Positions 3,390 through 30,306 of a stretch of 52,579 nucleotides of DNA are shown here, piece after piece. The stretch lies in IMG/VR virus record IMGVR_UViG_3300030329_003894, positions 1-52,579 of that record. The stretch is one strand, 5' to 3'. Every line of letters begins with the position of its first letter. The stretch's first letter is position 1. The position numbers and the translations under genes are program-made. Under the pieces are notes generated by a model that saw only the letters and a list, made by a program, of their open reading frames with translations, searched no databases and was not told the DNA's origin. This DNA is from a virus. Taxonomy: Duplodnaviria; Caudoviricetes.

Positions 3390-3582
3390 TGTAGTCGGGT
3401 ATTATCCTCCTTACCCAAAAGGATATCATCCGTATTCTTGTCCCGATACTCGACTACAAAACTTTAAACTATGTACCTCATAGTAAATGGTGATGGGATT
3501 CCCATTATAAAGATATTGACAGGCGAGTAACCATACAGGCATTAATTCCCTGTATAAATTCTAACGAGGGTCAAGCCACCAT
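3390..3582 (+). ncRNA. Two structured elements immediately upstream of the Ubl gene
   Basis: 13-bp stem 3390-3402/3446-3458 (one G-U); multibranch ATGGTG 3487 / CACCAT 3582 with nested TTGAC/GTCAA and ATACAGG/CCTGTAT. Confidence 0.45.
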
Positions 3583-3632
3583 AAATATTTAATAGTTAAC
3601 TAATAACAAAAAGAAAGGAGAAATTTGTTCAT

Positions 3633-3917
3633 ATGGCAAATACTTCAAATACTCAAACAACTGAACCAAGACAGTTGCAAATCCACGAAGGTGGTTCTTG
3701 GACAACAAAAACTGTAGTAGTAAATACTATAGGCGAACTAAGGGTAGAATTAGATATCCCTAATGATGTACAAATTAATATTAATGATACTTTGTACTCT
3801 GATAATACATCACCAATGCCATTAAATGGTACTAATGATGATGGAAGTACTCAACCACTATTTGTTGGATGGCAATCTAACAATAAAACAGGAGGTTGTG
3901 CTGTGGTATTATCATAA
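3633..3917 (+). CDS. Ubiquitin-like (beta-grasp) protein precursor
   Basis: 94 aa; beta-beta-helix(TIGELRVEL)-beta(VQININD) pattern; near-terminal KTGG followed by a 6-aa extension CAVVLS; upstream of E2, JAB and E1; AAAGGAG RBS. Confidence 0.75.
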   Translation: MANTSNTQTTEPRQLQIHEGGSWTTKTVVVNTIGELRVELDIPNDVQININDTLYSDNTSPMPLNGTNDDGSTQPLFVGWQSNNKTGGCAVVLS

Positions 3918-3927
3918 ATAAATAAAT

Positions 3928-4000
3928 TAAGGGGGACAATAACTGGTCCTATAAGTCCTATGATAGCCAAGAAGGCAAAGGAATATGTGAGTCCCCCTTA
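3928..4000 (+). promoter_or_regulatory. Structured element between the Ubl and E2-like genes
   Basis: TAAGGGGGAC / GTCCCCCTTA perfect 10-bp stem enclosing small hairpins. Confidence 0.5.
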
Positions 4001-4021
4001 TAATTAGACAGGAGTAAATAA

Positions 4022-5707
4022 ATGAGAGAATATAATTTTATAAATCCTAATATTGATAAATATAGTCAAGCACCTGTTATTATTGATGGTGATACTATTA
4101 GTTTATTAAATTGGGATTATCGAGCATTATATGATGGTAGTTATGAGGTAACACCGCAATTACCATTATTTCCATTAGATTTATTATTAGAAACAGTTAA
4201 TGGTAATGATTTAGCAGATGTCACAGCTTTAGATTTTACTAGAAGATTTAACGATAAGGTAGAACATTTTGCTAAATATTATGGTAAATACATGACAGAA
4301 ATAACAGGTAGTGATTATGTATTTGAAACAACTAAAAACTTTAATTGGAAAAGAGGTATATATGATGTTTTAAGAGCTTATGCTAATGAAGTATGTGGCT
4401 TTAATAAGAAAAATTCTGGTATTGACACATTTTTTAATAGAATAAGTCAAGGCAGATATACACTTAATAATATTCATACTCAACTTTCTCGAATTGAAGA
4501 TTTGAAAAGAGAATGTAAAAGAAGAGTTGGTAGTGTTGTAGAAAATGCAGATGAAGTTGTTGAAGGATTTAAACAACAATTGAATAATATTAAAGAAAAT
4601 ACTGCTTTAGCTCTTAGTATGACTTCTAAATTTCAAATATATCATGGCATTAATCTAACTGACCTTAATCCTAATCCTCCATTTGATGGATTCTTAGACC
4701 TTACAGTTTATACTATAGTTATAGTTGAACCTAATAATATGAATCTAATTAAATCAAATGGTGTCAATTTAGGTGTAGTACCTGTGCCTAAAGCATATCT
4801 TGTATTTAAAAGACCTTTAACTAAAGTTTTATTAAATAATGTTAAAGGTAGTGATATACGATTTAAAGCATCTGTTGCAGGTAGTAAGCATCCATACATT
4901 TCAACTACAACATTTAACAATTTAGACATACATTCAACTCGAAATGACAATACAGTAGGTCCAAGTTTTGTACCATGGTCATCTTCATTATGTTTATCGG
5001 CTTTTGCTGATAATATATTAAATGCATTGCAAAGGAATGATTATGTGCAATTTGTAATGAGTTTAAATGCATGGAACAATACTTATAATGTAGAAACAAC
5101 TAATCCTCATAATCCACCAGCTTCAGTTTTTTATCTTAATGGATTACCTAAAGATATTGATGAAGACCAAATACAAACATATAAATCATATACTGATTTT
5201 AATGAGGAAAGATGTTGGGATGCACAAATAAGTAATCATGGGCTTGCTGAAGATATCGATGAGTTGACAGGATATTTAAGGGATGAAAGTAATTTAAATT
5301 ATTATGAATATGGGGATTATGTAGTTACTTCATGCAATAAAAGACAATGTCCATTGCGAGAAAGATGTATTAAATTCAATAAATATCAAGAATTTCTTGA
5401 AATTGAAGATATAATAGAAAAAATAGAATCTATAGTTGGTTATGTCATTGGTGAAAAATTACAAGATGTAGATTTTAAAAATTATTATAGTGAATTTGAT
5501 GCATATAATGAATTTGCTTATAACTTTAAACATCATTTTAATTCTTATATTATGAATAACAGTTCTATGTACTCTCAATTATTAGATTGGAAATATTGGG
5601 ATAAAGTAGAACAGAATGATGAATTTATAGAAGCATGTCAAAATGCGGATACTAAAGATTTGGCTAGAGCAGTTCAAGCTTGGACACAATCAATTAACTC
5701 ACAATAA
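4022..5707 (+). CDS. Multidomain protein with a putative prokaryotic E2 (conjugating) domain
   Basis: HPYI (H290) followed by SLCLS (C324), resembling the E2 HPN...xCL signature; C438/C443/C449 cluster; lies between Ubl and JAB. Confidence 0.55.
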   Translation: MREYNFINPNIDKYSQAPVIIDGDTISLLNWDYRALYDGSYEVTPQLPLFPLDLLLETVNGNDLADVTALDFTRRFNDKVEHFAKYYGKYMTEITGSDYVFETTKNFNWKRGIYDVLRAYANEVCGFNKKNSGIDTFFNRISQGRYTLNNIHTQLSRIEDLKRECKRRVGSVVENADEVVEGFKQQLNNIKENTALALSMTSKFQIYHGINLTDLNPNPPFDGFLDLTVYTIVIVEPNNMNLIKSNGVNLGVVPVPKAYLVFKRPLTKVLLNNVKGSDIRFKASVAGSKHPYISTTTFNNLDIHSTRNDNTVGPSFVPWSSSLCLSAFADNILNALQRNDYVQFVMSLNAWNNTYNVETTNPHNPPASVFYLNGLPKDIDEDQIQTYKSYTDFNEERCWDAQISNHGLAEDIDELTGYLRDESNLNYYEYGDYVVTSCNKRQCPLRERCIKFNKYQEFLEIEDIIEKIESIVGYVIGEKLQDVDFKNYYSEFDAYNEFAYNFKHHFNSYIMNNSSMYSQLLDWKYWDKVEQNDEFIEACQNADTKDLARAVQAWTQSINSQ

Positions 5708-5719
5708 AGGAGGCCTTAA

Positions 5720-6718
5720 ATGGCAGAAGCAAAAGAATCAAAGAGAAGATTTATAATCTCTGAGAAAGATTGGAATACTATGCAACAATATGCCAGAATA
5801 TCTTATGATAAAGATAAAAACGAGATATCTGGTATTACTTGTTTGAAAAAAGTAACTCATCCAACATCAGGTGAATCAGTATGGCAATTATTTGACCCAG
5901 TTATTCTTAAACAAGAGAATACAGGAACAACTACTGAATTAGATGGTGATGCATTAAGAGATTTTTATATTAAAGCTGGCATGAAATATGGCAAAGATAT
6001 AAGATTCTGTTGGTGGCATTCTCATCATACTATGAATGCATTTTGGAGTGGAACTGATATTAATGAAATTAAAGAATGGAAAAATGATTCTTGGTCATTA
6101 GCATTAGTAATTAACCTATTTCATGAATATAAATTAAATGTTCATGTTTGGGACCCAATAGAATATAGTGAAGATGTTAGACTTGAAGTTCTAAGAAATG
6201 TTCCTAAAGCTACAGCAAAACAGCTTAAAGAATATGATGAACTATGTGATAGTCCAGCACAAATACAAACTATTGGAACACCTCAGCCATGGTATCGTAA
6301 TAATAATATAAATCAAGCAAATATATGGGACCATGCAAGGAAACTATCTAATCAGGTAGCTAAACCCTTAGACCCATTAGCTAGCGATGATAAATTATTA
6401 TGGGCTACACATGATAATGCTCTTCATTACTCTGAATTAATTGATTTTGTTATTGAAGAAATCAATGATATGATGACAGAATATGCCTTAGGCAAGAAAG
6501 ATTATAAGGAATATACTGAATTTGTTAAAATAGTTAATGACAGATTAAAAGTGCGAGATGCAAGAATGAAAATAAAGAAAATTGCTAAGGGTAAGTTACT
6601 TGAAGCAACAGGAACTATGGAAGCTGAAGACCATATTATTTTCAATGATGATACGACTAAAGAAATATATAGTCAAGCACAAATACAATCAGGAGGGTGG
6701 CATTATTATGGGCATTAA
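5720..6718 (+). CDS. JAB/JAMM (MPN+) metallopeptidase with a C-terminal extension
   Basis: E35 plus an exact H-x-H-x7-S-x2-D motif (HSHHTMNAFWSGTD, H100-D113). Confidence 0.92.
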   Translation: MAEAKESKRRFIISEKDWNTMQQYARISYDKDKNEISGITCLKKVTHPTSGESVWQLFDPVILKQENTGTTTELDGDALRDFYIKAGMKYGKDIRFCWWHSHHTMNAFWSGTDINEIKEWKNDSWSLALVINLFHEYKLNVHVWDPIEYSEDVRLEVLRNVPKATAKQLKEYDELCDSPAQIQTIGTPQPWYRNNNINQANIWDHARKLSNQVAKPLDPLASDDKLLWATHDNALHYSELIDFVIEEINDMMTEYALGKKDYKEYTEFVKIVNDRLKVRDARMKIKKIAKGKLLEATGTMEAEDHIIFNDDTTKEIYSQAQIQSGGWHYYGH

Positions 6719-7376
6719 TATGAGAAGTGAAGGTTTAATCAATAACCTTAATGAATTTACTTTCCATATATTAGGCTGTGGGGCTATTGGTAGTTCCGCA
6801 GCCAATCAATTAGTAAGAGCTGGTGCAACCAATTTCTTATTATATGATATGGATATTGTAAATACAGAAAACTTAGGTGTATCTCAATATTTGGATGAAC
6901 ATATTGGTAAACCTAAGGTAGAAGCTTTAAGTAATTATTTACAATCTATTAATGATGAAGTTGATATTATATGTTTTCATGAAAAATATGATATGTTTAG
7001 ATATCAACATAATCAAGATATAGTTATTTTAGGCTTTGATAGCATGGAATCAAGAAAAGAAGCTGTGCTAGATATTTGTCGCGATAAAATGCAAAAGCCA
7101 TTTATGTTAATAGATGGCAGAATGGGTGGAGAACATTACCAACAATATGTATTTACTGATGTAACATTGCCTAAATACATGAAAACTTGGTATAGTGATG
7201 AAGATGGAGACCCAGAACCATGTAATATTAAAGCGACAACATATTGTTCGAATATGGCAGGAGCATTTATAGTTAATGCAATAAGAAAGGTCTTAACACA
7301 GAGTCCTTACGAGAGGGAATTGTCATTTAATTTTCCTCATATGACACTGCAAAAAAAGACTTGTTTCCAAGCCTGA
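6708..7376 (+). CDS. E1/ThiF-family adenylyltransferase (Ubl-activating enzyme)
   Basis: GCGAIGS, DMDIVNTENL, IGKPKVEAL, GFDS, DGRMG; candidate catalytic Cys in EPC; start moved to ATG 6708 behind AGGAGG. Confidence 0.92.
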   Translation: MGINMRSEGLINNLNEFTFHILGCGAIGSSAANQLVRAGATNFLLYDMDIVNTENLGVSQYLDEHIGKPKVEALSNYLQSINDEVDIICFHEKYDMFRYQHNQDIVILGFDSMESRKEAVLDICRDKMQKPFMLIDGRMGGEHYQQYVFTDVTLPKYMKTWYSDEDGDPEPCNIKATTYCSNMAGAFIVNAIRKVLTQSPYERELSFNFPHMTLQKKTCFQA

Positions 7377-7389
7377 CATATAGTAAATT
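7361..7389 (+). promoter_or_regulatory. Putative sigma70-like promoter of the replication module
   Basis: TTGTTT-N17-TAAATT. Confidence 0.45.
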
Positions 7390-7424
7390 GATAGTCCCTT
7401 AGCAGCCTTTGTTAAGGGATTATC
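7390..7424 (+). terminator. Hairpin closing the ubiquitin-like operon (terminator or processing site)
   Basis: GATAGTCCCTTAGCA / TGTTAAGGGATTATC 15-bp stem with two G-U pairs; no strong U tract. Confidence 0.5.
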
Positions 7425-7450
7425 GTTATCACAAATAAGGAAAATAAGCA

Positions 7451-8122
7451 ATGGCACTAAAGAAAGTAAAGAGGAAAGTTGTCTCTACTAATCCTAGTAC
7501 ACTTCTATTATATGGAGCTCCCAAAGTAGGTAAAACTACTATGTTATCTGTCTTAGATGATTGTTTAATCATTGATACAGAAAAAGGTAGCCGTATGATT
7601 GAAGGATACATACAAGAGGTTAATAGTAGAGAAGAACTTATTAATACTCTTATAGAGATAAAAGAAAGTAAAGATGTAAGCTATAAATATATTGCTATAG
7701 ATACTATAGATAAAGTAGCTGAATGGGCTGAAAGACAAGTATGCAAAGAAGAAGGTGTTGCAGCAATTGGAGATTTAGCATTTGGCAAAGGTTATGGTAT
7801 GGTTAGAGAGAAAGTATCTAGAACACTATCAGCTTTTAAAGAAGTAGCAGAGCATCTTATTATAATTGGACATAGAAAAGTAGCATATGCAGTAACAGAA
7901 GGTAATCCAATAGTTATACCTGAATCAATTGATTTGACAGGTAAGCTTAAGAATGTAATTATGGCTGGCTGTGATGCAATTGGATATGTCTATCGTAACG
8001 AAGATGAATTAATGGTTTCATTTAAAGCAAATGATGCTATTGAAGCAGGAAGTAGATGTCCTCATCTTAAAGGTAAAGAAGTTAAATTCGAATGGAAGAA
8101 TATATATAAGGAGAATAAATAA
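7451..8122 (+). CDS. Sak4-like (AAA_24) P-loop ATPase / single-strand annealing protein
   Basis: Walker A GAPKVGKT, IIDTEKG, Walker B IAIDT, GKGYG, CDAIGY. Confidence 0.85.
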   Translation: MALKKVKRKVVSTNPSTLLLYGAPKVGKTTMLSVLDDCLIIDTEKGSRMIEGYIQEVNSREELINTLIEIKESKDVSYKYIAIDTIDKVAEWAERQVCKEEGVAAIGDLAFGKGYGMVREKVSRTLSAFKEVAEHLIIIGHRKVAYAVTEGNPIVIPESIDLTGKLKNVIMAGCDAIGYVYRNEDELMVSFKANDAIEAGSRCPHLKGKEVKFEWKNIYKENK

Positions 8123-15098: not shown

Positions 15099-16483
15099 TT
15101 CATTAATCCTTTAAATAATAATGATGGGTTTTTTCTTAAACTCATAGCCTTTGCTGCTATTTGAGCTAATCTACCTAATTTATCTTTTCTAATATCTGTT
15201 AATTTTGGAGAAGCTGGTTCTGGTCCATAAATTCTAGCAGTTTTTGATGCTGCTTGCGTTATTCTAGATTTCTTTGGAGATATGTCATACTCTTTTCTAG
15301 GCTTAGTCTCTGGTCTACGAGTTTTAAAGGTCCAATCAGCTCTATTTAAAACTGGTTGTGCAAACAACCTTTCTACACCTTTTGTAATCTTACCCGTACC
15401 TAAGTCATGAACATCTCTCATACCACCTCGTATTGGAAGATATGTACCGCCTTTTCCATTTTTATTAGGAATCCAAGCAAAATCCATGTATTGCCAATGT
15501 TGCCCAGCAACATATTCTAAAGCTTTAGACCATCCCATTCTGTTAATTGGAACAAATCCTAATCTAAAGGTCCTAGTAACAGTACCATCCTTCAATCGAT
15601 GCCTAAGGCCTTCTCCAGGTTTTATTTCAGTTAATTTCATATCACCTACAACTTCACCTCTGGGATTAACTGGCAACGATAATCCATTAATTACTTGCCT
15701 TGGGAATTTTCTAACTTCTGTACCATAATCATATTCAGCATTCATTATAGCTTTTTTAACATTAGATATTGCATTTCTACTACCGCTTGCAAATACTTTT
15801 TTAATACGACTTATTCTAGGGTCATTTTTTGCTTTATTTTTAAAATCATCTTGCTGCTCTTCTCCATGTATTAATGTCTCAATTTCTCTCCCAACATATG
15901 GTTTCATAGATGCATCTATCCTTGCCATTTGCGGCTCTACAATAGTTTTTACTCTTACATCACCCTTGCCCATTGGAATCATTGAAGGGTCCTTGCCAAC
16001 AGCAACTTTAGTATTGCCAACTAGTAATCTTCTTTTTTTCAACGTATTTTCTGCATTTTTTAAATCCTGCTCTTTTTGGATTCGTTCTCTTTCAGTGAAA
16101 ATTCCAAATTTATCATCTTTTCTTAATTCTTTTTTCTGGTCTTTAATTCTAGATTCCATAGCTTTCAATTCTAAAGATTCTCCAGTAACTAAACTATGCC
16201 CCAATTGATACATCCCACCTCTTACACTATAACCACCAGCTTGTAATGCATTATGTAATGCTTGAGATATCTTACCACCCTTAGCATATTGTTTAATAGG
16301 GCTACGAACTCCATATCCTTGAGTATCAACAACAGAAGATAATAGAGATTGTGCACCTTTTCCAAGGGCATAGCCACCTAAAGCAGCTCCCCCAGCTGTA
16401 TATGCAGCATACTTCCCAAAATTTTGGGCAGAATTTAACTCCTCATCTGAGGGGGTCATCGCTTCTATTAATTCATCTGCCAT
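15095..16483 (-). CDS. Basic protein, probable internal virion/ejected protein
   Basis: Follows the giant virion protein; N-terminal Gly/Ala hydrophobic segment. Confidence 0.5.
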   Translation of the reverse strand: MADELIEAMTPSDEELNSAQNFGKYAAYTAGGAALGGYALGKGAQSLLSSVVDTQGYGVRSPIKQYAKGGKISQALHNALQAGGYSVRGGMYQLGHSLVTGESLELKAMESRIKDQKKELRKDDKFGIFTERERIQKEQDLKNAENTLKKRRLLVGNTKVAVGKDPSMIPMGKGDVRVKTIVEPQMARIDASMKPYVGREIETLIHGEEQQDDFKNKAKNDPRISRIKKVFASGSRNAISNVKKAIMNAEYDYGTEVRKFPRQVINGLSLPVNPRGEVVGDMKLTEIKPGEGLRHRLKDGTVTRTFRLGFVPINRMGWSKALEYVAGQHWQYMDFAWIPNKNGKGGTYLPIRGGMRDVHDLGTGKITKGVERLFAQPVLNRADWTFKTRRPETKPRKEYDISPKKSRITQAASKTARIYGPEPASPKLTDIRKDKLGRLAQIAAKAMSLRKNPSLLFKGLMK

Positions 16484-19400
16484 TAATAAAATTCTCCAGG
16501 TGTAGGCACTTTTCTTTCAGGTCCTTCTCTAAGGTCTTTAGATGCCTTTGTTAAACCGATTGCAGGAACTCCTGTCCATTTATCAATAATTCCTAATGGA
16601 TTTTCTATAATATTATTAGGTCCATGCAAATCTCTAATTATTCTTCCAAATGGGAACATTGTATATACATAATAGTTAGAAACACGCTCCCAATCGTCCT
16701 CTAATATAGCTCTCATAGAAGAAATAGGCAATCTTAAAATAGGAGGAGTAACTGTCTGTAATGGAGCTAATGCTCTAGGCCATTGTCCAAAGAAAGCTCT
16801 ATTACGCTCTTTCTCATCTCCGAATATCCAATCAGCGGTATCTTGAACCCAATTCCAAGGAGCTGGCATAGCAGTTTCAAATAAGGAATAAGCAAAAGCA
16901 TTACCTAAAGCAAATACAAATAAGTCCATTTGCATTATTCTAGCAGCTCTTTTAGCTTCCTCTCCTTTAAAACCATATATTCTAGCTTGTCGTAAAGCTT
17001 CTTTTCTAAATCTAACAGCATTCCATCCCCATAATTGGAAACGAGTCATTACTTTACCTAATGCAGTCCTAGCAAACATAGGTCTATATGGAGCAGAATA
17101 TAAAAACTGTGTAGCTTTAACACCTTTCTTAGCTAATTCAATAAGAATAGGATGGTCAAAATCTTTAATAGCTCCACCAAATTTATTATACCAATGTAAA
17201 TAATGTGCCATAAAAGCATCTCTTCTTAATGCTCTCTCAGGGACAGACATAAATTTAGCTGCTAATTCTGCAACAGGCTTAGTTATTTCTCTTTTCTTAG
17301 CTAAGTCAAGTACAGATTCTTGTGATAACTCAGGGTCCTTTGAAAGCTTTCTAGCTACATCTTGAATAAATTGCTTATTCTTACTTGTTTGATACTCTTT
17401 AGCTAATCCATACTCAGCCATTAAATATTCTGGCAATACTCCATGTTTAACAACAAATTCATCGATTGCTTGCAAAGAGTTCCATTTAGGATTAATAGCT
17501 GATAATTTTTTAGGATTTCTTGCTGTTAGCCAGGTATTAAAACCTACTGATTGAATAGTATGCATAGTACCACCAAAGATATTATTAACCACCGATTTAG
17601 GATGTGCTAATAATGATGCTAATTCAAACTTAGCTTCTAAATTACTCCAGTTCCTTATCTGGAATAAATCTATTCCTCTTAAATTCTCTGGTAGGTCTTT
17701 CTTAATTAATCCAAGCTTTTCGCCTATTTTATTAACTCTATTTTTAACTCTATTGTCAGCCCACCAAGCATATGGAGTACCTTTCATCTTCATCTTAGGG
17801 TCATTTAATACTTGCTCAGGAACAACATCAGGATTACCCATAGCTCCTTGCACATATAATTTCAAAAATGTAGACCAAGCTTCAGTTTGCTCTTTCCCCA
17901 TCTTTTTAAACATAGTACTATTAAAATCATTAATTGTATTTCTTCCAAATATCTGTGACATTTGTCTGAAGTAATTGCCTACTAATCCCTTGACATAATT
18001 ATTAGCTACTTGTCTATCTAGGGAATAGCCTGGCATATGAGCATTTCTAGAGAAAAGTGGACCAGCCTTCTTTAAACTTCTAAACCAATTAATACTTTCT
18101 TGTTTTTCTTGTTTTTTGGCAGATATGTTAGTTAATACTTCAAAATGTTTCCATTCATCTAAATCCTGAAAATTCCATTCACCTGTTAATGCATGATGTC
18201 TATAGGTTAAGCTTGTTAATATCTCTTCCATTTGAGCTTTAGGTAGCTCAGCCTTATTTAAAAAATCAGTATATCTTTTTAATGATTCTAATGCTGTTTT
18301 TCTATCAAAATGCATATGAGGCCAATATCTTTCAAAATCTATTGGTTCTGTTGCCCTAGTTTCAGATTGCATTAATTCTTTTTTTACTTTAGGGTCTTTA
18401 GTCATTTCAATCATCATTGATTTAGCAACTTTTCTTATCCCATCTACACCAAATTCCAATGGAAACCCTTTGCCTGCTTCATAACTTTTCTTTAGATGTC
18501 TGACAAATGCAACATGGTCTATTCTAGGACTTGTTTGTGCTTTGTCATACCATCCTATTCTAAATGGTTCTAATGATGCTTGTATAACTCCCTTAGGTTT
18601 ACCAGTGACTTTATTAATAGGCACATCACCAGCTATAACTTCTGTGAACATTTTTCTAAAGAAATTGGTATATGCATCATTAATAACTTTAATAACTTCT
18701 TCACCCCTCATTCTTTTTTGCTCACCTTTAATATTAACAGTATATATCTTATCCTTAATAGATTTGTCATAATCATATTTCTTTAAGACATTTTGATATA
18801 GCTCATTATATGTTTGAGAGTCGGCATAATTAATAGCAGATTCTTTATCTTGCCTAGACAAAAGGTATTTAGTGTTGGGGTGTTCTCTAATTGCTACTGC
18901 AATCTCGTGAAGTGCATCTGCCCCTTTAATATTATCTAAAAACAATAACTCTTCACCTAATTTCTTTTCATATTCTTCGCCTTTACCAATAGCAGCATCA
19001 TTAGCTCTACCAATCCAATGAGTTAATTCATCCATATACTGTGTTGGTTTAACTACCTTACCTTTTTTAAATATACCTTCAGGGGTCAAAAACATACCTT
19101 CTTTTTGCATTAGAACAATTTCATCTTTCATTAATTCTCTATTAATTGTTTCAGGGAATTGCAAATAATGTCTTTGTGATAATTTAGTAATTTTACCACT
19201 TTTAAGTCTTTGCCATAAAGTTCCTCTTTTAATATCATCAAACCAATTACTCATTGCCATCCAATCAGCTTTATTCATTAAACTTATATCTTTCTCAAGT
19301 AATCCCCTCACTAATAAATGGAAATTTTCAGTAACTTTATTATTTTCTGTCTTTAAATGAGTTAGGATATTATCAATAGCGGCTTTAGTTTCCTTAGATA

Positions 19401-22400
19401 CTTCTACCTTTTTCTTAGGTTTTTTAACACTTTCCCAACCAGAGGTAGAAGTTAAGAATTTATCCATATCTCCAGTAAAGTATTCAGGTAGTCCTTGTTC
19501 TATATTCTCTTGTTTTTGTGGCTCTTCTACAAGTCTTTGTCCTAATTTCCTAACATCTTCAGGGGCTCTTTGTTTAGAAATCTCTGTATAAACATCGCCC
19601 ATTTCTTTTAAAAATTCTATTCTACTATCTCTATTGACAGATTGACTATTATAACCTAGCCTAGATAATGAAGTTTTAGATGCTTCCTGCCTCATAGAGC
19701 TTATCCATCTATAAGCTACTTCATCTAAGGGTATCTTCTTTTTATTAATAAGAGCTTCAAAATTCTGTATTGCTTTTAAATCACCACGATTTAATGAACC
19801 TAACATAAGAACATCAATTAAATCTTGTTGATTCTTAGTATTGTATGTATTCTTTTTAACCTTTGCAATCTTGGCATCTATAGTAGCTTGGTCCATTACA
19901 GCAGTAGTTGGCTCAGTACTTTTAACCTCCCAACTAAATCCAGGTGATTTTAATCCATGTTTTTTTAAGAATGCTGCAATATCCAACCCCTGGTCACCTA
20001 CAGATTCTTGTAAGTCAGGGTCATTTCTTAATCTTCTTTTACTCATTAAATAACTATTTCTTTTCCAACTATCTACAGCTGCAACAATTCTTTTAATATT
20101 CTTTCGCTCATTAGCATCCATTTTATCAATGATTTCTCTAACTTTTTTAACGGTAACTAATGTAGTTAAATCTTTCATAAGAAATGCACTAGCTTTATCT
20201 CTTATATCTCTTAAAACTTGTATTCTTTCATTTTTCCAATTAAAATTCTTAAGAGTTTTAAAAGCACCTCGTTTAGTTTTAACTTTAAATTCTCTCTGAG
20301 TTTTTCTTAATAATTCTGGTGTATGCTGAATAGTAGTATTATGTATAACTTGTTTAAATAAATTATTATCACTAGCAACAATATCTAAATCAGTATTATT
20401 TAATAGCGATAATCTTCTTTTATTTTTCCCTGAGCCTGTTGTACCTGCATTTAATGTCACATCCATATAATGGTGATAGTCCATTTTAAAAGACTTTCTG
20501 TCTAATAATTCAAGCAAATCATCGTATTTATTAACAGACTCTTTGTAGTTTCTATATAAAGCTTCTACCTTGTCTACATCTACTCTTTTCAAAGGACCAT
20601 CTGAATAGTCTAATTCATGTAACATCCTAGCAATTTTTGGAGTTACTGTATTAATATCAGCTTCATTTTCAAACATTAATTTAGAAGTCATTTCATGTCG
20701 TTCTTCCATTGTAAAATTACGATTCTTTAAATAATCTCTACCATAATAAGCTGAATTTGCTTTTTCCATCATACCAAAAATACCTTGTTGCTTTAACTGG
20801 TATATATCATTATTATTAAATTTATCAATGAACTCATTTGGATTCTTAACCTCTTTTCCATTTTTAGTTACTGAATCTACATTAAAATGAGCTTTATACA
20901 TTTGTTTCCACCATTCTGCATAATTTTTCATCCCAGGATAGTCCATAGGGTCAGAAGAAAGTCCTACCATAGCCCTAGTAAGCTTACGTATATAATCTTT
21001 CTCTTTTGGGCTTGTTTTAGGCGAAATTTTAACATCGTATACATCTTCTATCCATTTTCCTTTAACTTTTTTATTAGTTTTAAAGCTAAAAGTATCAGAA
21101 CCTCTATCTACTAATACATTATAAACAGATGCCATTATTTGTTTAGGACTAATTGCTGCACCACTAAGTAAGTTTCTACCATCTGTAGCTGCATGAGACA
21201 TCTCCATTCTAGTATTAGGAGCATAAGCTGCAGATATATCATCTATATCATATTTTCTTGTATCTGGTTTTAAAAGACTCTTAATTATTTCTTTATCTTT
21301 ATTTTCAGTAATAATAATATTTCCATCTTTATCCTTCTCGTAATATTCTTCTTTATTAGCCTCATAAGCATCTTTCCAAGTCTTTTTAAAGCCACCTTTA
21401 CCACCCATGTATACATAAGCCGCATCACCATCAAGGTCAGCACCACCTAAGGCTTTCATAGCTCTAGAATGCAATAAAATCCCATGACCTTTTCTACCTG
21501 TAAAACCTGCAAATTCTAATATATGAGTGCCTGAGATAGAGTCCATTGGAACTCTCATTACAGCAGACCTAAATACTTCTTTTAATTCAGCCTTAGCTAC
21601 AGCGTCTTTTGTTCTTAGATACATTTCATACAGCTCTCCTAAAGACCTATTACCAAAAGATTCTGTCTCTACTCTCATTTGGCGATAAGCTTCATCTAAA
21701 AAGAAAAGCTTATCATTAGTATCTAATTCTTTTAATCGAGGGTTGACACCATCCATATCTTCTCTTAAATATCTATCATATGGTCTCATTCTAGCAGATA
21801 TAGAATTATTAATTTTTGGCTTTGTAGCTTTATTAATTACCCAACTAGACAGAACTTTCATTCTATAGTCATTAACAAAATTATGGACAAAGATAGCCAT
21901 TTGATTTTCTGGCCTATTGCTTAGTTTAGCAGCCACTCTACCATCTTGAATCATTTGACTACTAAGAGAATTAAACTCTTCTAATTCTTTAATTTCTGCT
22001 TTATATGTTTCAATATCCATATCACCATTTTCAAATTCTTCAGCAAGGGAATCTTTTCTTTTCTCTAACATAATTTCATATGCTTTACGAGCAAATAATT
22101 GATTGCCTTCAAGTTTCATAGAAGCAACTATTCTACCTAAACCCATATTTTCCCAATCTAATTTCTCTAATTCTCTCATTAATTCTTTGTCAGATGCTGT
22201 AGGTAGTTTATCTTCATATGCCCTTAATGCATCATTTGCCTTTTTAGTGCCCTTGTATTTAGGTTCTAACATAGTATCAAAGATATCATTGACTATATCA
22301 TTCATATGTATACCATCTTTAGTTTTAGGTGCAAATGCTAGTGATTCTACTAAACTATTTAATAATTGCTTTTTAAGGGATTGTTTTTGTAACATTTCAG

Positions 22401-25400
22401 GACCTTGTCTAACACTATAATTAAACTTTATAGCACTAGGGTCTAATTCATAAATAGCATTAGGATTCTCTGTAATCAAATCCCTAGTACCTCTTTGCTT
22501 AGCTGCTGTTTCTTGTATGATAAAATGTGTATCAGCTAATCTCATATCTTCACTTTGTTTTTTACCCGCAGCATGCATCATATACTTACCTAATAAAGCA
22601 CCATGCTTAGCATCAGGGGCAATGATAAATGATTTATTTTGCCCAGAAACAGGATGACCAGCATCCTTATTTAAAGCATCTATTACATCATCTCTTACTA
22701 TAATAGCACCATCCATCATTTCTTCCATCTCAGTATTCTTTAAATTAGCAAGTTTTTGATTTTTAAGCTTTTTACCAGGCTCTACATCTACATCATTATC
22801 CATAACAAAATTAAAATTACCATTTTTTGTTAAACCTAATTTTCGTTTAGTTGTAGGGTCTACATAGTTTTGATAAAATTCTTTATCACCACCATAAGAA
22901 TCTGTCATCCATATTTGACTTCTTTTATTCCAATTCTTTACATTGTTAATAAATCCTTTTCCTAACATCATCTTCATATTAGCATCATTAAATTCTAATC
23001 CATTTTTAGCTAAATTCCATAAGACATTTGATTTAAAAGCCTTATCAAAGTAATCTTTTGCTTGTTGCTTAGTCATAAAATTATCACCTGCAGCAAATTT
23101 CTTACTAAACTTTTCAACAAAATCATCTCTTAATTTATCAATTTTATATCTTCTAAATCTTTTAGTTATCTGATTATAAGAATGTTTATCTACATCAGGA
23201 TGCCATCTCATAAATATAAGCTTATCATTATCTCCTTTTCCCCCGAAATAATAAAAGCCACCATTTTCTTCTTTCCCCCAATGCTTTAAACTTCTAGATA
23301 ATAATTCATTAAAAGCTTTTTCTCCATATTTTTGAGAACCTCTAAATCTAGAAGGAGTTAATTCTCTATGTCTACCATTAAATCCTTCTACTACTATATT
23401 ATCTAAAACAGCAAAAGCCCTCTCATCCTTACCTGTTAAAGCACGCCAGATATCATCTACTAGTTTCATTGGTTCAAGAGTTCTTTTTACATTACCTGCT
23501 AAATTACTTTGATAAGTTTCATCCATCATAGTAATTTGCTTACCATCAGAGGTAAATTGAATTAATTTTCTGTCATTATTTCTACGACTAATCCATTGAC
23601 GAGCGAAGTTTTCAGCCTCATCTCTTTGCTCTTTATTATATTCTTTACTTTTAGGATTTAATTCTTTTATATCAAATTCTTTAATTATTTCTTTTAAAAA
23701 CTCTTGAGACCTATTAACTTTAGAGCCTGGATTATGATACTTAGGAAAGATTTCAGCAATCCTATCCATATCTTGTATCATTTTAGATTCTTTAATTGGA
23801 CCAACTAACCCCTTATAAGAACCTATATTTTTCATATATTTCTTAACAAATTTAAATGGATTAGTGCCTATTTCTTTTTCAGATGTAGGTATACTACCTG
23901 TATCAGCATCTTCAACATTCTTTAAGCCACTATCATCTTTTTCTGTTTGTTTACCTTGTGCAATGGCCTCTTTAGATAATTGCTCGGGAAAATGTTGTTC
24001 AAATAATTCAGCAAATGCTTTTTTAGATTCATTTTTATTAGTAGCATCTGCAATAAATCCCATAGCCCTAGGAGGAGTCTCTGGATTTCTAGGAGCAAAA
24101 CCCTTAGCTGATGGTATATATCTATGCCATTGATTTTTTACATGCTCATATACATATACTGGCTTATTCATATTAATAGCCATTTGAGCAGCCCAGCCTG
24201 GAGCACCTTCTAATTGTTTATTAGTTTCTATTACTCTACCATCTTTTAATGTCATCTTCCTAAATTCGCCAGATAAGTATAAAGCATCTGCATTTTTAAC
24301 TACAAAATAATTCTTTCTGACCATATCTAGATTATCTCCAGTAGGTGTTTTGCCTAGCATATTACCAGCTCTAGTAATCTCTACATTAGCTTCTGCTAAT
24401 TCTTCTGGCTTCAATCCATGGGCTACACCAGGAAAGACTTTCTTTTTCATTTTAGCAGCTTCAGGCCTAGTAACCATATGTATATTAGCTATCTTATCTC
24501 TTCTTTTATGACCTTCTCTAGCAATAAATGATTCCACTCCACTTTGTCCAGAAGTAATAACAAAATGTTCAAATCCTGCTAATGCACCAGGTTTAAGCTT
24601 TATTTTTTTACCATCTGCTCCTGCTACTTGATAGTATTCACCAATATTATCAAGCATTTTAGCTGCTTTTTTAACATCTACTCCAGTAGCTTTTGCAAAG
24701 TCTAATACAGCTTGAGTATTCTCATCCATAGTTCCCCATCTAGACTTAAACATTTCTTTAGTAACAGATTGAACTTCTGGAGGTAGTTTTTTAAATTCAG
24801 GATGAAATTCAGGGTCTCTCATAACTAGAAGCTCTGCATTATCCTTAGCATCCTTTTCATATCTTTGCATAAATTTTTGAGCCTTAGCATATGTCCAAGG
24901 TCTCTCATTCCCACCAAACCACGCCCCCATAACATATTGATATACTTGCTCAGGAGTAGTAGCTCCTTGCATTGTACTAGGTAATCCCATAAATAATGAA
25001 CCAGCTAATGTTTTAGCAACCTTATTCCCTGCTTCATCACCCACATTAATAAAATTTCCAATACTTCTAAATACACCACCTGCCATACCGCCATGGGCAA
25101 ATGCAGACATCATTTCATCTACACCCCCTTGCCAAGAGGATACTGCCGAAGCTGTACCTAAATGGAATGCTCCTTCAGCTATATGCCTAGCTCTATTCCC
25201 AAGAATAAAGTCAGATGCTGTCTTTACAGCTGAATTTTTAGCTAATCTGCCTTGATTTAAAAAGGGTTTTACTGACTTCTTAGCAAAATCAGTTGCTACT
25301 TTGGCAGCAGCCATAGGAACGGATTTATCATTAAGACTTCTAGCTAATTTAGCTGCAGATACTAATGATTGTGCTTTAGTTAATTTAGCAGCTCCCATAA

Positions 25401-25713
25401 GTGGAGCAGATATAATACCAGGAGCAAAACCTGCTAAATGACCTAGGTTTTTAAATATAGCTTCGTATTCATTGTCAGGAGCTTCGCCAAAATGTAATGT
25501 AGTGAATCCCTCCATAAAGCCTGCACCAAAATCAGTGAGTGCATCTTTAATACTAAACTCACCACCAAAAAATGGCACACCATGATATGCGGCATGTTGT
25601 TCTATTGATTGTTTAAAGGGTTCTGAAAAGGCTTGAGGATTATCTTTATAACGGTCTATAATACTTCGTAGAGTTTTTTCGTCCCACTTTGGTTGAAATT
25701 GGGCTTCCGCCAT
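16483..25713 (-). CDS. Giant internal virion protein with a two-barrel RNA polymerase core (putative virion RNAP) and a SLOG-like domain
   Basis: RVP (R1387) ... GGADLDGD (D1426-D1430, nt 21424-21438); upstream DG (D1001) with K1027/K1043; located in the ejection-protein cluster. Confidence 0.75.
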   Translation of the reverse strand: MAEAQFQPKWDEKTLRSIIDRYKDNPQAFSEPFKQSIEQHAAYHGVPFFGGEFSIKDALTDFGAGFMEGFTTLHFGEAPDNEYEAIFKNLGHLAGFAPGIISAPLMGAAKLTKAQSLVSAAKLARSLNDKSVPMAAAKVATDFAKKSVKPFLNQGRLAKNSAVKTASDFILGNRARHIAEGAFHLGTASAVSSWQGGVDEMMSAFAHGGMAGGVFRSIGNFINVGDEAGNKVAKTLAGSLFMGLPSTMQGATTPEQVYQYVMGAWFGGNERPWTYAKAQKFMQRYEKDAKDNAELLVMRDPEFHPEFKKLPPEVQSVTKEMFKSRWGTMDENTQAVLDFAKATGVDVKKAAKMLDNIGEYYQVAGADGKKIKLKPGALAGFEHFVITSGQSGVESFIAREGHKRRDKIANIHMVTRPEAAKMKKKVFPGVAHGLKPEELAEANVEITRAGNMLGKTPTGDNLDMVRKNYFVVKNADALYLSGEFRKMTLKDGRVIETNKQLEGAPGWAAQMAINMNKPVYVYEHVKNQWHRYIPSAKGFAPRNPETPPRAMGFIADATNKNESKKAFAELFEQHFPEQLSKEAIAQGKQTEKDDSGLKNVEDADTGSIPTSEKEIGTNPFKFVKKYMKNIGSYKGLVGPIKESKMIQDMDRIAEIFPKYHNPGSKVNRSQEFLKEIIKEFDIKELNPKSKEYNKEQRDEAENFARQWISRRNNDRKLIQFTSDGKQITMMDETYQSNLAGNVKRTLEPMKLVDDIWRALTGKDERAFAVLDNIVVEGFNGRHRELTPSRFRGSQKYGEKAFNELLSRSLKHWGKEENGGFYYFGGKGDNDKLIFMRWHPDVDKHSYNQITKRFRRYKIDKLRDDFVEKFSKKFAAGDNFMTKQQAKDYFDKAFKSNVLWNLAKNGLEFNDANMKMMLGKGFINNVKNWNKRSQIWMTDSYGGDKEFYQNYVDPTTKRKLGLTKNGNFNFVMDNDVDVEPGKKLKNQKLANLKNTEMEEMMDGAIIVRDDVIDALNKDAGHPVSGQNKSFIIAPDAKHGALLGKYMMHAAGKKQSEDMRLADTHFIIQETAAKQRGTRDLITENPNAIYELDPSAIKFNYSVRQGPEMLQKQSLKKQLLNSLVESLAFAPKTKDGIHMNDIVNDIFDTMLEPKYKGTKKANDALRAYEDKLPTASDKELMRELEKLDWENMGLGRIVASMKLEGNQLFARKAYEIMLEKRKDSLAEEFENGDMDIETYKAEIKELEEFNSLSSQMIQDGRVAAKLSNRPENQMAIFVHNFVNDYRMKVLSSWVINKATKPKINNSISARMRPYDRYLREDMDGVNPRLKELDTNDKLFFLDEAYRQMRVETESFGNRSLGELYEMYLRTKDAVAKAELKEVFRSAVMRVPMDSISGTHILEFAGFTGRKGHGILLHSRAMKALGGADLDGDAAYVYMGGKGGFKKTWKDAYEANKEEYYEKDKDGNIIITENKDKEIIKSLLKPDTRKYDIDDISAAYAPNTRMEMSHAATDGRNLLSGAAISPKQIMASVYNVLVDRGSDTFSFKTNKKVKGKWIEDVYDVKISPKTSPKEKDYIRKLTRAMVGLSSDPMDYPGMKNYAEWWKQMYKAHFNVDSVTKNGKEVKNPNEFIDKFNNNDIYQLKQQGIFGMMEKANSAYYGRDYLKNRNFTMEERHEMTSKLMFENEADINTVTPKIARMLHELDYSDGPLKRVDVDKVEALYRNYKESVNKYDDLLELLDRKSFKMDYHHYMDVTLNAGTTGSGKNKRRLSLLNNTDLDIVASDNNLFKQVIHNTTIQHTPELLRKTQREFKVKTKRGAFKTLKNFNWKNERIQVLRDIRDKASAFLMKDLTTLVTVKKVREIIDKMDANERKNIKRIVAAVDSWKRNSYLMSKRRLRNDPDLQESVGDQGLDIAAFLKKHGLKSPGFSWEVKSTEPTTAVMDQATIDAKIAKVKKNTYNTKNQQDLIDVLMLGSLNRGDLKAIQNFEALINKKKIPLDEVAYRWISSMRQEASKTSLSRLGYNSQSVNRDSRIEFLKEMGDVYTEISKQRAPEDVRKLGQRLVEEPQKQENIEQGLPEYFTGDMDKFLTSTSGWESVKKPKKKVEVSKETKAAIDNILTHLKTENNKVTENFHLLVRGLLEKDISLMNKADWMAMSNWFDDIKRGTLWQRLKSGKITKLSQRHYLQFPETINRELMKDEIVLMQKEGMFLTPEGIFKKGKVVKPTQYMDELTHWIGRANDAAIGKGEEYEKKLGEELLFLDNIKGADALHEIAVAIREHPNTKYLLSRQDKESAINYADSQTYNELYQNVLKKYDYDKSIKDKIYTVNIKGEQKRMRGEEVIKVINDAYTNFFRKMFTEVIAGDVPINKVTGKPKGVIQASLEPFRIGWYDKAQTSPRIDHVAFVRHLKKSYEAGKGFPLEFGVDGIRKVAKSMMIEMTKDPKVKKELMQSETRATEPIDFERYWPHMHFDRKTALESLKRYTDFLNKAELPKAQMEEILTSLTYRHHALTGEWNFQDLDEWKHFEVLTNISAKKQEKQESINWFRSLKKAGPLFSRNAHMPGYSLDRQVANNYVKGLVGNYFRQMSQIFGRNTINDFNSTMFKKMGKEQTEAWSTFLKLYVQGAMGNPDVVPEQVLNDPKMKMKGTPYAWWADNRVKNRVNKIGEKLGLIKKDLPENLRGIDLFQIRNWSNLEAKFELASLLAHPKSVVNNIFGGTMHTIQSVGFNTWLTARNPKKLSAINPKWNSLQAIDEFVVKHGVLPEYLMAEYGLAKEYQTSKNKQFIQDVARKLSKDPELSQESVLDLAKKREITKPVAELAAKFMSVPERALRRDAFMAHYLHWYNKFGGAIKDFDHPILIELAKKGVKATQFLYSAPYRPMFARTALGKVMTRFQLWGWNAVRFRKEALRQARIYGFKGEEAKRAARIMQMDLFVFALGNAFAYSLFETAMPAPWNWVQDTADWIFGDEKERNRAFFGQWPRALAPLQTVTPPILRLPISSMRAILEDDWERVSNYYVYTMFPFGRIIRDLHGPNNIIENPLGIIDKWTGVPAIGLTKASKDLREGPERKVPTPGEFY

Positions 25714-28980: not shown

Positions 28981-30306
28981 TTATTCTCCTGTTACTATTG
29001 TTGCTGGTAAAGCAGTTGCTTTTAAAATTATTGGTGGATAATGCGACCCTGTTGTTCTGTTTCTACCATGTGATATATAGGTACTAGAGCCACTGGCTAA
29101 TCCTGCTAAATAATATGTAGTATCTGTTCCAGCAGTAAGCCCAGTTACAGTAAATTTTATAGTACTAATACTATGGTCAGTTTCATCTATATATACAACT
29201 TGGTCAGCATCATATGTATGTTTTTCATCTAATTCTGCATAAGATGTTCCAGTTGATAATGAAAATTTAGCACCTTTAGATACACCTGTCATCCAAAAAG
29301 AGCATTCTATTTCTACATTACCACTTGGAGGTACTTTAAATTGTATAGATAAATCAGTTCCTTGTGCAGTTTGCATAACAGTCATAGAGCTAGAATTAAT
29401 TGTAATAGTAGCATGTCCTACAGTAGTACTGTCATTCATTATTTTAGTATATCCAAGCATCATCCCAGCATAAGCACTATTAGCAGCACTAAATTCAGTA
29501 CCTGCTTTCTTTGCTATGAAATTCCCACTATGAGAATCTAATGTTATACTAGCTCCAGAATCAACAACAAAATCATCAGCAATAATTTGGTCTAAACTAG
29601 ATATAGTTAAATCGCCACTAGAATAAGTGACATCAGACAAATCATTTAAGGCAGATACACTACTAGTACCTGCACCAATATCACTTCTAACTTCTGATGC
29701 GGAGCGACTTTCTAATCCATTTGCTGTAAAGCGAGCATATTCATCATCAGCAACTGAATTACTATCTATCTTAACTGCATTAGTATCAGCGATTCCAAAT
29801 GTTAAAGTTTCTTGACCTCCAATATATGTTAAAAGATTAACTCCCGTAACATATTTAACTTCTCCATTATCTGACATTAATATTTTATCAGTGTCAGAGC
29901 TTATTTCGCTTAAACTTCCAATGGTTAATTTAGAATATGTACTTAAATTACCTAACTTATCGTATAGTAATGCCTCATTTTTAATAGGTTTATTTCTATT
30001 GCTACGTAGGCCCTTAGATGGCTTATTCCCTTTGCTTAAAGGCACTAAATTGGCGTTTAAATCAACCTGATAGCCCATAGGTGTTTTAACAGCCAATAAA
30101 AATTCACCTTTATAATTTCTAGCAAGCATAGTAGAACCAACTGGACTCTCTCTTTTTCTAATAGGACTTTGTTTAGCTTCTAAATCAGGCTGCAAATCAT
30201 CTAATCTGTCATATATTTCTTTTAAAGCCTTATCAGTTATAGGTTCTCCAACTAGAGTTCTGAGAACTTTTGCTTTTGTCATTGTTCTTGGAGAATGTCG
30301 AGGCAT
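28981..30306 (-). CDS. Tail fibre/spike-like protein
   Basis: S/T/G-rich; ALNDLSDV fibre-type repeat; beta-rich C-terminal domain. Confidence 0.6.
   Translation of the reverse strand: MPRHSPRTMTKAKVLRTLVGEPITDKALKEIYDRLDDLQPDLEAKQSPIRKRESPVGSTMLARNYKGEFLLAVKTPMGYQVDLNANLVPLSKGNKPSKGLRSNRNKPIKNEALLYDKLGNLSTYSKLTIGSLSEISSDTDKILMSDNGEVKYVTGVNLLTYIGGQETLTFGIADTNAVKIDSNSVADDEYARFTANGLESRSASEVRSDIGAGTSSVSALNDLSDVTYSSGDLTISSLDQIIADDFVVDSGASITLDSHSGNFIAKKAGTEFSAANSAYAGMMLGYTKIMNDSTTVGHATITINSSSMTVMQTAQGTDLSIQFKVPPSGNVEIECSFWMTGVSKGAKFSLSTGTSYAELDEKHTYDADQVVYIDETDHSISTIKFTVTGLTAGTDTTYYLAGLASGSSTYISHGRNRTTGSHYPPIILKATALPATIVTGE

Follow-up and report, generated by a model that had tools for sequence, protein, structure and literature searches.

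The gene at positions 3633 to 3917 of the virus record IMGVR_UViG_3300030329_003894 (Duplodnaviria; Caudoviricetes) encodes a small ubiquitin-like protein (Ubl) of 94 amino acids (aa) in which the C-terminal Gly-Gly is followed by six further residues, the sequence ending in ...SNNKTGG|CAVVLS. The window analysed here is the whole of this stretch, a complete virus record of 52,579 nucleotides (nt), and all features described below lie on its plus strand unless stated otherwise. We propose that the Ubl would be the modifier of a phage-borne system whose genes stand first in the replication module of this tailed phage of 52.6 kb. The explanation taken as a whole, in which the cap would be trimmed by a JAB peptidase encoded nearby and the Ubl then activated and passed on to protein targets, is in our view the probable one; it builds on what this analysis documents about gene structure and synteny, sequence conservation, the class of fold and the catalytic motifs.

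The reading frame was read directly from the letters. A ribosome-binding site, AAAGGAG (3614 to 3620), is located 12 nt ahead of the ATG of the Ubl, and the TAA stop codon occupies 3915 to 3917. The codons gga (3891-3893) and ggt (3894-3896) specify G87 and G88, in agreement with the initial annotation, which had placed a Gly-Gly at nt 3891-3896 with six residues after it. The mature Ubl predicted from this arrangement would comprise residues 1-88 (3633 to 3896), with a disordered N-terminus, a beta-grasp core and a flexible end N83-N-K85-T-G87-G88; the six-residue cap CAVVLS that follows the reactive Gly88 (3897 to 3914) is predicted to be removed. It had also been claimed that the protein as translated could not be activated by an E1, and this would be borne out by the precedent of the bacterial Bil system. 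An E1 cannot adenylate a reactive glycine that is followed by a further residue, and BilA in which Gly97 is still followed by Ala98 is not adenylated, according to the accessible text of 10.1101/2023.09.26.559546. Because of this block, the Ubl of the window would have to be trimmed to be used. The translation contains exactly two lysines, K26 and K85, the number first counted. The invariance of K85 and its position two residues ahead of the Gly-Gly make it look like a recognition residue rather than a site of chain formation.

The Gly-Gly end is conserved throughout the family, while what follows it is not. A word-indexed search with the Ubl returned 22 database clusters at 63-97% identity, a full hidden Markov model (HMM) search of 1.84 billion representatives gave 14 proteins at E <= 0.001, nine of which were used, and a scan of viral contigs gave 40 loci, the total set amounting to 72 sequences, 65 of them unique. 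Four proteins were dropped from the tail count: P0031 (54 aa) and P0037 (68 aa), both truncated, P0034, a 792-aa repeat protein that is probably unrelated, and P0039 (129 aa), which diverges after about residue 45. The motif [NSD][NTD]K[TVG]GG stands in register in 71 of the 72 sequences, the exception being the 61-aa truncated form P0022, and N83, K85, G87 and G88 do not vary among 22 diverse members. By contrast, 29 of the 65 unique Ubls end exactly at the Gly-Gly and the other 36 carry tails of 1-19 residues; at the 40 viral loci, 30 Ubls are untailed and 10 tailed. Homologues had been expected to conserve the Gly-Gly and to vary or lack the tail, which is what the alignment returned. To judge from the sequences, the gene and its Gly-Gly end are not a chance feature, because the gene is kept in 22 clusters, nine distant representatives and 40 viral contigs. 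No longer fused form of the Ubl was found among 7,998 candidates, a result that the tool itself grades as weak evidence.

The predicted structure points to the same superfamily. A first AlphaFold2 model, built from an alignment of close homologues, reached a predicted local distance difference test (pLDDT) score of 50.6 and was unusable; the model from a diversified alignment reached 74.2 and showed the bb-a-bb-b order of a beta-grasp, with strands at residues 13-19, 22-28, 48-50, 53-55 and 76-80 and a helix at 33-40. Its C-terminus is floppy (block mean pLDDT of 54 and 51 for residues 81-94). Compared with the PDB by Foldseek, this model gave no match at E <= 0.001. The top row was the ubiquitin of Caldiarchaeum in complex with an Rpn11 homologue (6fnn/6fno; E 0.029, probability 0.97-0.99, identity 17-18%), and other top rows were ubiquitin, SUMO, elongin B and ISG15 (probabilities 0.9-1.0). 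In BFVD, two short viral proteins match the model at E 1.1e-5 and 7.3e-5. A profile search of the PDB with the Ubl gave nothing relevant, only one irrelevant match at E 1.6. We therefore regard the Ubl, with moderate confidence and on the strength of a model, as a probable beta-grasp protein, and its initial description as ubiquitin-like agrees with both the fold and the best structural matches. The protein has the features of the ubiquitin/ThiS/MoaD superfamily, namely the fold, the flexible C-terminal Gly-Gly and the linkage to an E1, although it matches no curated sequence model.

The Ubl gene opens a cassette of four tightly packed genes on the same strand, in the order Ubl, a 561-aa protein of no known family (4022 to 5707), a 332-aa JAB/JAMM metallopeptidase (5720 to 6718), with a catalytic domain at about residues 1-190 and a C-terminal domain, and a 220-aa single-domain ThiF-type E1 (6714 to 7376), whose reading frame begins within the last 5 nt of the JAB gene. 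When the proteins of the window were used as tblastn queries, all four genes were found in the same order in 34 of the 40 viral loci; five of the remaining six are cut by contig ends, and the sixth, L041, has a 582-aa open reading frame (ORF) that tblastn does not recognise. Downstream of the cassette, the related loci encode an AAA_24 ATPase, a 194-aa protein and a primase/helicase-like ORF.

The JAB peptidase is weakly recognised by sequence models and retains a complete active site. It matches Pfam Prok-JAB at E 0.0018 with 18.6 bits, below the 25-bit cut-off, and the PADLOC JAB models at E 0.008-0.05. The linked JAB and its residues E35 and H100 had both been named from the sequence, and an intact JAMM peptidase does stand in the same cassette as a ThiF-type E1, with the two residues at those positions within a complete JAMM pattern (E35, H100-x-H102, S110-x-x-D113) that is invariant in 36 of 36 JABs. 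The claim that the cap explains the linked JAB did not survive, for the JAB is intact in all 36 and yet the Ubl ends at the Gly-Gly in 27 of the 35 loci placed on a tree of JAB plus E1. Since the JAB is equally conserved in these 27 loci, where there is nothing to trim, precursor maturation cannot be the reason for which it is kept; its conserved role is probably the removal of the Ubl from targets (deconjugation). In the window itself, by analogy with related systems, the JAB is most likely also the trimmer of the cap.

The E1 matches the ThiF family PF00899 at E 3.8e-22 (79 bits, cut-off 28.1), the domain spanning residues 9-213. Its GxGxxG loop and residues D45, D47, K68, D109 and R114 are the same in all 35 sequences compared, and the cysteines C170 and C178 of the crossover region are kept in 34 of the 35. 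The PRTRC system (TIGR03735-TIGR03738) was considered as a possible assignment for the cassette and rejected: PRTRC_ThiF scored 25.6 bits against a cut-off of 144.75 (29.6 for the E1 of locus L039), PRTRC_A scored 16.5 against 101.8 and only with the JAB of L039, and the Ubl had no match to PRTRC_C.

The 561-aa protein occupies the position that the E2 has in the Bil gene order. Its relatives were found by synteny, through the Ubl loci, and share a core at about residues 205-385 (4634-5176) that contains HPY (290-292), C324 (nt 4991-4993) and NPHNPP (361-366), with the consensus ...HPYI...G-x-V-C-L-D...S-N-P-Y-N-x-P; C324 is the one invariant cysteine of this core across 33 sequences of the family. 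The series HPY...Cys...NPxNxP may resemble the HPN...Cys...P-N-x-x-x-P of UBC enzymes. Downstream of the core lies a cysteine cluster, C438/C443/C449 (5333-5368), with the consensus C...C-x-x-I-x-C-x5-C, in which C443 is invariant in 33 sequences and which may be a small zinc-binding element. A complex prediction between residues 180-420 of this protein and residues 1-88 of the Ubl gave a median score of 0.56 (0.60, 0.47 and 0.56 in the three runs), graded as weak support; the best of three controls scored 0.00, at least 68% of the contacts are common to the runs, and the partner has a pLDDT of at least 75. In the calibration of this method, 58 of 80 solved complexes scored as high as the mark, as did 2 of 110 mismatched pairs, and the range up to 0.60 held only 7 of the 80 solved complexes but both of the passing mismatches. 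The invariant C324 within its core, the cysteine cluster and the score of the complex with the Ubl are compatible with an E2-like role. The protein itself matched nothing in Pfam (noise only), PHROG, PADLOC, NCBIfam or the PDB sequences, and a pattern search of viral contigs with it gave 13 stretches, none of which was confirmed. The ESM Atlas, queried with the whole protein and with residues 205-385, returned only clusters of eukaryotic-virus fusion glycoproteins (scores 0.90-0.93, 142-198 shared features); the protein's own model there was poor (pLDDT 0.29), and the matches were treated as chance.

The rates of divergence separate the four proteins. Compared with locus L039, the identities are 31% for the Ubl, 22% for the 561-aa protein, 42% for the JAB, 56% for the E1, 66% for the AAA_24 ATPase and 61% for the primase/helicase-like ORF, and the same pattern is seen for the window against loci L012-L040, with about 27-35% for the Ubl, about 21-26% for the 561-aa protein, 34-52% for the JAB, 55-61% for the E1 and 59-69% for the neighbouring replication genes. 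Co-evolution of the Ubl with the 561-aa protein, or diversifying selection, would be compatible with the fast divergence of these two.

The following pathway can be proposed. Adenylation of the C-terminus by the E1 would require prior removal of CAVVLS by a cut after Gly88, and the neighbouring JAB, with its intact zinc site, would be the trimmer, as BilC is for BilA. The trimmed Ubl would be activated by the E1, handed to C324 of the 561-aa protein and from there, we infer, to protein targets. A peptidase cutting behind the Gly-Gly is always encoded alongside, and for this reason the cap would be tolerated; the conserved task of the JAB would probably be to remove the Ubl from targets. That protein conjugation is the function of the Ubl seems to us reasonably likely, a claim that we make slightly less firmly than that of the explanation as a whole.

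The closest parallel is the Type II BilABCD system of Ensifer aridi, composed of BilA (Ubl), BilB (a CEHH-type E2), BilC (JAB) and BilD (E1). The order of the Bil genes, which are located in bacterial defence islands, is Ubl-E2-DUB (deubiquitinase)-E1, and BilC cuts BilA at G97|A98, Type II BilA carrying up to nine residues past the glycine, as given in the accessible part of Chambers et al. (10.1101/2023.09.26.559546); the portion of the Hör preprint available to us reports overhangs of 2-9 aa in twelve BilA homologues. The cassette of the window resembles this system in the order of its genes, judged by position, in a Ubl made with residues past the reactive glycine and in a JAMM active site with a glutamate near residue 33-35. 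A second role described for BilC-type peptidases, the removal of the Ubl from targets (10.1101/2023.09.26.559546, accessible text), corresponds to the one proposed above for the JAB. The differences are equally clear. BilD, as far as it is described in the source, is a multidomain protein with inactive and active adenylation domains and a mobile cysteine domain, whereas the phage E1 is one domain of 220 aa; the 561-aa protein has no sequence similarity to any E2 or CEHH model; none of the four cassette proteins matches a Bil model among the PADLOC matches listed; and the setting here is a phage replication module, not a bacterial defence island. In addition, unlike the Type II Bil Ubls, 29 of the 65 unique relatives and 30 of the 40 loci here are capless. 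In the operon of Caldiarchaeum subterraneum, a ubiquitin precursor is likewise processed by a JAMM peptidase of the same operon, CsRpn11 (PMC6043591, in the part accessible). A recognisable E2 and a RING E3 are present there, according to the accessible part of PMC5654768, whereas none is recognisable here, the carrier is a phage and the identity is 17-18%. The tail proteins of lambda and T1 offer a further comparison, since TAPI (Ubl) and TAPK (JAB plus NlpC/P60) also combine a phage Ubl and its conserved C-terminal glycine with an adjoining JAB predicted to cut there. That tail cluster of TAPI, TAPK and TAPJ has no E1 listed in the accessible part of the survey of Iyer et al. 2006 (PMC1779556); the cassette here has an E1, adjoins replication genes and lies on the opposite strand from the head genes.

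More distant counterparts of the cassette occur in cultured or named phages. E1 homologues of 29-33% identity are present in 76 phage records, of which 29 have Flavobacterium, 29 Bacteroides and 12 'uncultured' as the first word of the organism name, and which include the crAss-like phage cr111_1 and FpV4-like phages of Flavobacterium psychrophilum. In FpV4 (locus L042, NC_041872.1 1610-5621) and cr111_1 (locus L043, NC_055880.1 1761-5636), the JAB and ThiF pair stands beside a primase, with a JAB homologue directly upstream of the E1 (HMM E 2.4e-6 in NC_055880.1 and 5.7e-8 in NC_041872.1); that of cr111_1 is annotated 'Contains metalloprotease domain'. A protein of about 420 aa without known family lies ahead of the JAB in both phages, and no similarity was found between these ~420-aa proteins and the 561-aa family (hhalign probability 0.1-0.2%). 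Two genes upstream, a protein of 211 or 289 aa has a Ubl-like N-terminal region of 85-90 residues ending in ...K-I-R-S-G-A or ...V-K-S-G-G. Proteins of this kind match the Ubl model in BFVD, where ranks 4-8, all at probability 1.00, include the 211-aa protein of cr111_1 (E 1.8e-3), a protein of 289 aa from the related Flavobacterium phage Fpv3 (E 5.2e-3) and proteins of cr126_1 and cr106_1; the name given to the cr126_1 match refers to a bL12 C-terminal domain. The link to the Ubl rests on these structural matches, because the support from sequence profiles is weak, the hhalign probability of the Ubl family being 6% with the N-terminal domain of FpV4 and 37% with that of cr111_1. Unlike the window Ubl, the cr111_1 and FpV4 proteins continue for about 120-200 residues after the S-G-G or S-G-A. 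The Ubl-like domain of such phages would be a true proprotein, and a proprotein with so long an extension would fit a cassette peptidase that cuts after the glycine.

Several results weigh against a conjugation system in the window. We infer all of the enzymatic steps, that is cleavage at G88|C89, the JAB as the enzyme responsible for it, conjugation and the E2 role. The Ubl of the window matches no Pfam, PHROG, PADLOC or NCBIfam model, and Pfam ThiS is touched by only 1 of 22 members of its family (E 0.0097). No Pfam match to UBC or Prok-E2 was obtained at E <= 10 for four full-length members of the 561-aa family or for 31 core segments, and PDB profile searches with 4, 33 and 31 sequences of this family gave coiled-coil noise or nothing. 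The E1 lacks a separate cysteine domain, and its best NCBIfam match is NF006395, a short sulfur-carrier ThiF (E 6.1e-23, 81.6 bits, cut-off 159). For the cap itself, the tails AVIVR, AVILS, VINK and KKQ each recur in two clusters and a tail RGLIxLPLxxS is present in four sequences, and because some tails thus recur in related sequences there may be, judging from the alignment, a weak constraint on the tail.

Part of these results would be expected if the Ubl were a sulfur carrier, an alternative that we consider rather unlikely. Capped sulfur carriers trimmed by JAMM enzymes are known, as in QbsE/QbsD of quinolobactin synthesis and CysO/Mec+. By this account the trimmed Ubl, of ThiS/MoaD type, would be adenylated by the E1 and converted into a thiocarboxylate, and its sulfur would be consumed in a reaction catalysed by the 561-aa protein, for instance the thiolation of a nucleotide, a cofactor or a small molecule in replication, with the JAB trimming the precursor and/or freeing a product adduct, as QbsD does for QbsE and Mec+ for CysO. 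As in the operons of capped sulfur carriers, a JAB and a ThiF-type E1 are encoded together with a small beta-grasp protein that extends beyond its Gly-Gly, and operon classes with a ThiS/MoaD-like protein, a JAB and an E1 are listed in the accessible part of Iyer et al. 2006 (PMC1779556). The account is favoured by the E1, a single 220-aa domain without a cysteine domain of the E1 type, whose best NCBIfam matches are ThiS adenylyltransferase models (after NF006395, TIGR02356 at E 2e-17 and 63.2 bits against a cut-off of 275, and TIGR02354 at E 2e-16) and whose phage homologues are annotated as thiamine biosynthesis ThiF, as well as by the fact that ThiS is the only Pfam family touched by the Ubl family and that the searches detected no E2 family in the 561-aa protein. 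However, all ThiF and MoeB scores are far under the curated cut-offs, the MoeB models giving 39-43 bits against 266-377, so that no curated ThiF/MoeB score is reached. In contrast to known capped carriers, no sulfur-metabolism genes are linked: Pfam searches of nine neighbours found no rhodanese, cysteine desulfurase, PP-loop, ThiG, MoaE or other sulfur-handling domain, although partners encoded by the host are possible. Instead, the setting is one of phage replication, and the genes follow the Bil order, the E2 slot being filled by a large protein in which one cysteine is invariant. Divergence is also much faster in the Ubl and the 561-aa protein than in the E1 and the JAB, which is unusual for a metabolic carrier, and the nearest structural matches are ubiquitin-type modifiers. 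We retain conjugation to proteins as the preferred function.

The role of the cap within such a conjugation system is a separate matter. The initial annotation suggested that it provides a switch, and in that case it could act as a timing switch, a targeting signal or a hydrophobic element that prevents the Ubl from acting before the JAB has been produced or switched on. The tails of the closest relatives are indeed similar and hydrophobic (CAVVLS, CAVITS, AVIVR, AVILS, AAVILA), all six members of the window clade on the JAB plus E1 tree are tailed, and the distant phage relatives have long C-terminal extensions after S-G-G or S-G-A. We nevertheless judge a functional cap improbable. On the same tree of 35 rows, with 8 loci tailed and 27 untailed, at least three changes of state are needed, and the sister pair of the window clade, L009/L011, is untailed. 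Tails are absent from 29 of the 65 unique relatives, and very short ones of one or two residues (Q, TK, RK, SK, EK) are common. In 231 Ubl pairs the mean identity is 0.74 for the body and 0.09 for the tail, and in the 18 pairs with a body identity of at least 85% the means are 0.92 and 0.36. Even in P0001, the nearest relative, which is 97% identical over the whole protein, two of the six tail positions differ from the window Ubl. P0004 and P0007 are 100% identical over residues 12-88 and carry unrelated tails of 11 and 13 residues. The 9-residue tail of L013 (264-294) appears to be recent: L013 has an identical JAB and E1 to the untailed L019 (2265) and differs by a 29-nt insertion directly after the Gly-Gly codon. 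Co-expression can also be assumed, because the cassette is tightly packed on one strand with overlapping JAB and E1 frames, which would leave little room for a delay. The unrelated tails on identical bodies, the insertion that made a tail and the many tailless Ubls thus speak against a switch. Our interpretation is that the cap is a tolerated, evolutionarily labile extension, and the sequences suggest that such caps would be made and lost by small indels and shifts of the stop codon. A CaaX-like reading of the Cys-first tail was rejected, the cysteine not being four residues from the end and Cys-first tails occurring in only 3 of the 72 sequences. That the cap is never removed, the protein being a non-conjugatable, non-covalent variant or the product of a decaying gene and the JAB acting on other substrates, is very improbable: cleavage is indeed an assumption and the JAB is conserved independently of tails, but the body, the N-x-K-T-G-G end and the whole cassette are equally conserved in tailed and untailed clades, tails are present in 36 of the 65 unique Ubls, which is too many for decay, and the same arrangement is processed in Bil.

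The genomic setting is that of a tailed phage. The terminase, portal and major head genes of the window are on the minus strand, and the plus-strand replication block contains the AAA_24 ATPase, a 588-aa ORF and an exonuclease; we presume the 588-aa ORF to be primase/helicase-like from reading its sequence. The structural half also contains two giant minus-strand ORFs, at 16483-25713 (3,076 aa) and 30306-38054 (2,582 aa), and the product of the first gave no PHROG match at E <= 1e-5. A DNA search of positions 3400-7500 against 50,697 phage records returned no match. Among bacteria and archaea, searched with one genome per species (185,579 species), the only match to the cassette is L044, a contig of 3,859 nt from a metagenome-assembled genome that bears the label Nisaea sp.; the contig encodes a Ubl ending at the Gly-Gly, a 660-aa protein, a JAB and an E1. 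This contig probably represents phage DNA that was binned together with bacterial sequences and for this reason is unusable for host assignment. The most divergent locus is L041 (3892-7545), in which the Ubl ends in D-K-G-G-G plus a six-residue tail and the 582-aa protein in the E2 slot has an N-terminal L-G-P-Q in common with L044, of which G-P-Q also occurs in the 561-aa family consensus. In the gap that follows the Ubl gene and precedes the 561-aa gene, an intergenic stem-loop (3928 to 4000) is closed by a 10-bp G+C-rich stem, UAAGGGGGAC / GUCCCCCUUA, with a minimum free energy of -24.9 kcal/mol and a z of -2.13, 5 of 200 shuffles folding equally well. A terminator scan found no terminator-like site in this gap and did not call the stem-loop, which might determine how much Ubl is expressed relative to the enzymes.

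The trimming of a capped Ubl by a linked JAB is already established through BilA and BilC, and the finding as first written is for that reason not new biology. We found no literature on phage Ubl-E1-JAB cassettes, although the supplementary tables on Bil operons, which were outside the search, might include phage or prophage cases. The nearest remark is that one gut-phage protein family resembles UBA5, in the accessible part of a 2026 preprint, and the accessible text of the 2006 survey (PMC1779556) places phage Ubl and JAB pairs only in tail-assembly clusters. What is new is the setting, with uncatalogued families for the Ubl and its partner, an E1 of one domain and a cassette conserved in a phage replication module. 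It is possible, and we put it forward tentatively, that a group of tailed phages (uncultured phages of about 50 kb and, more distantly, crAss-like and Flavobacterium phages) owns a complete Ubl-conjugation pathway in its replication module. In such a pathway, the 561-aa protein would be a new, diverged E2-like enzyme with an HPY...Cys324...NPxNxP core and a C-terminal cysteine cluster, host or phage proteins would be tagged during infection, for example in counter-defence or host take-over, and the caps and extensions would be trimmed by the JAB. The counterparts in phages of the ΦcrAss001 and FpV4 types, which at present carry no annotation beyond 'thiamine biosynthesis protein' and 'metalloprotease domain', would open the question to experiment. 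Bacterial Ubl conjugation is known as a weapon against phages; Ubl conjugation owned by a phage, if true, would be the other side of the conflict between bacteria and phages.

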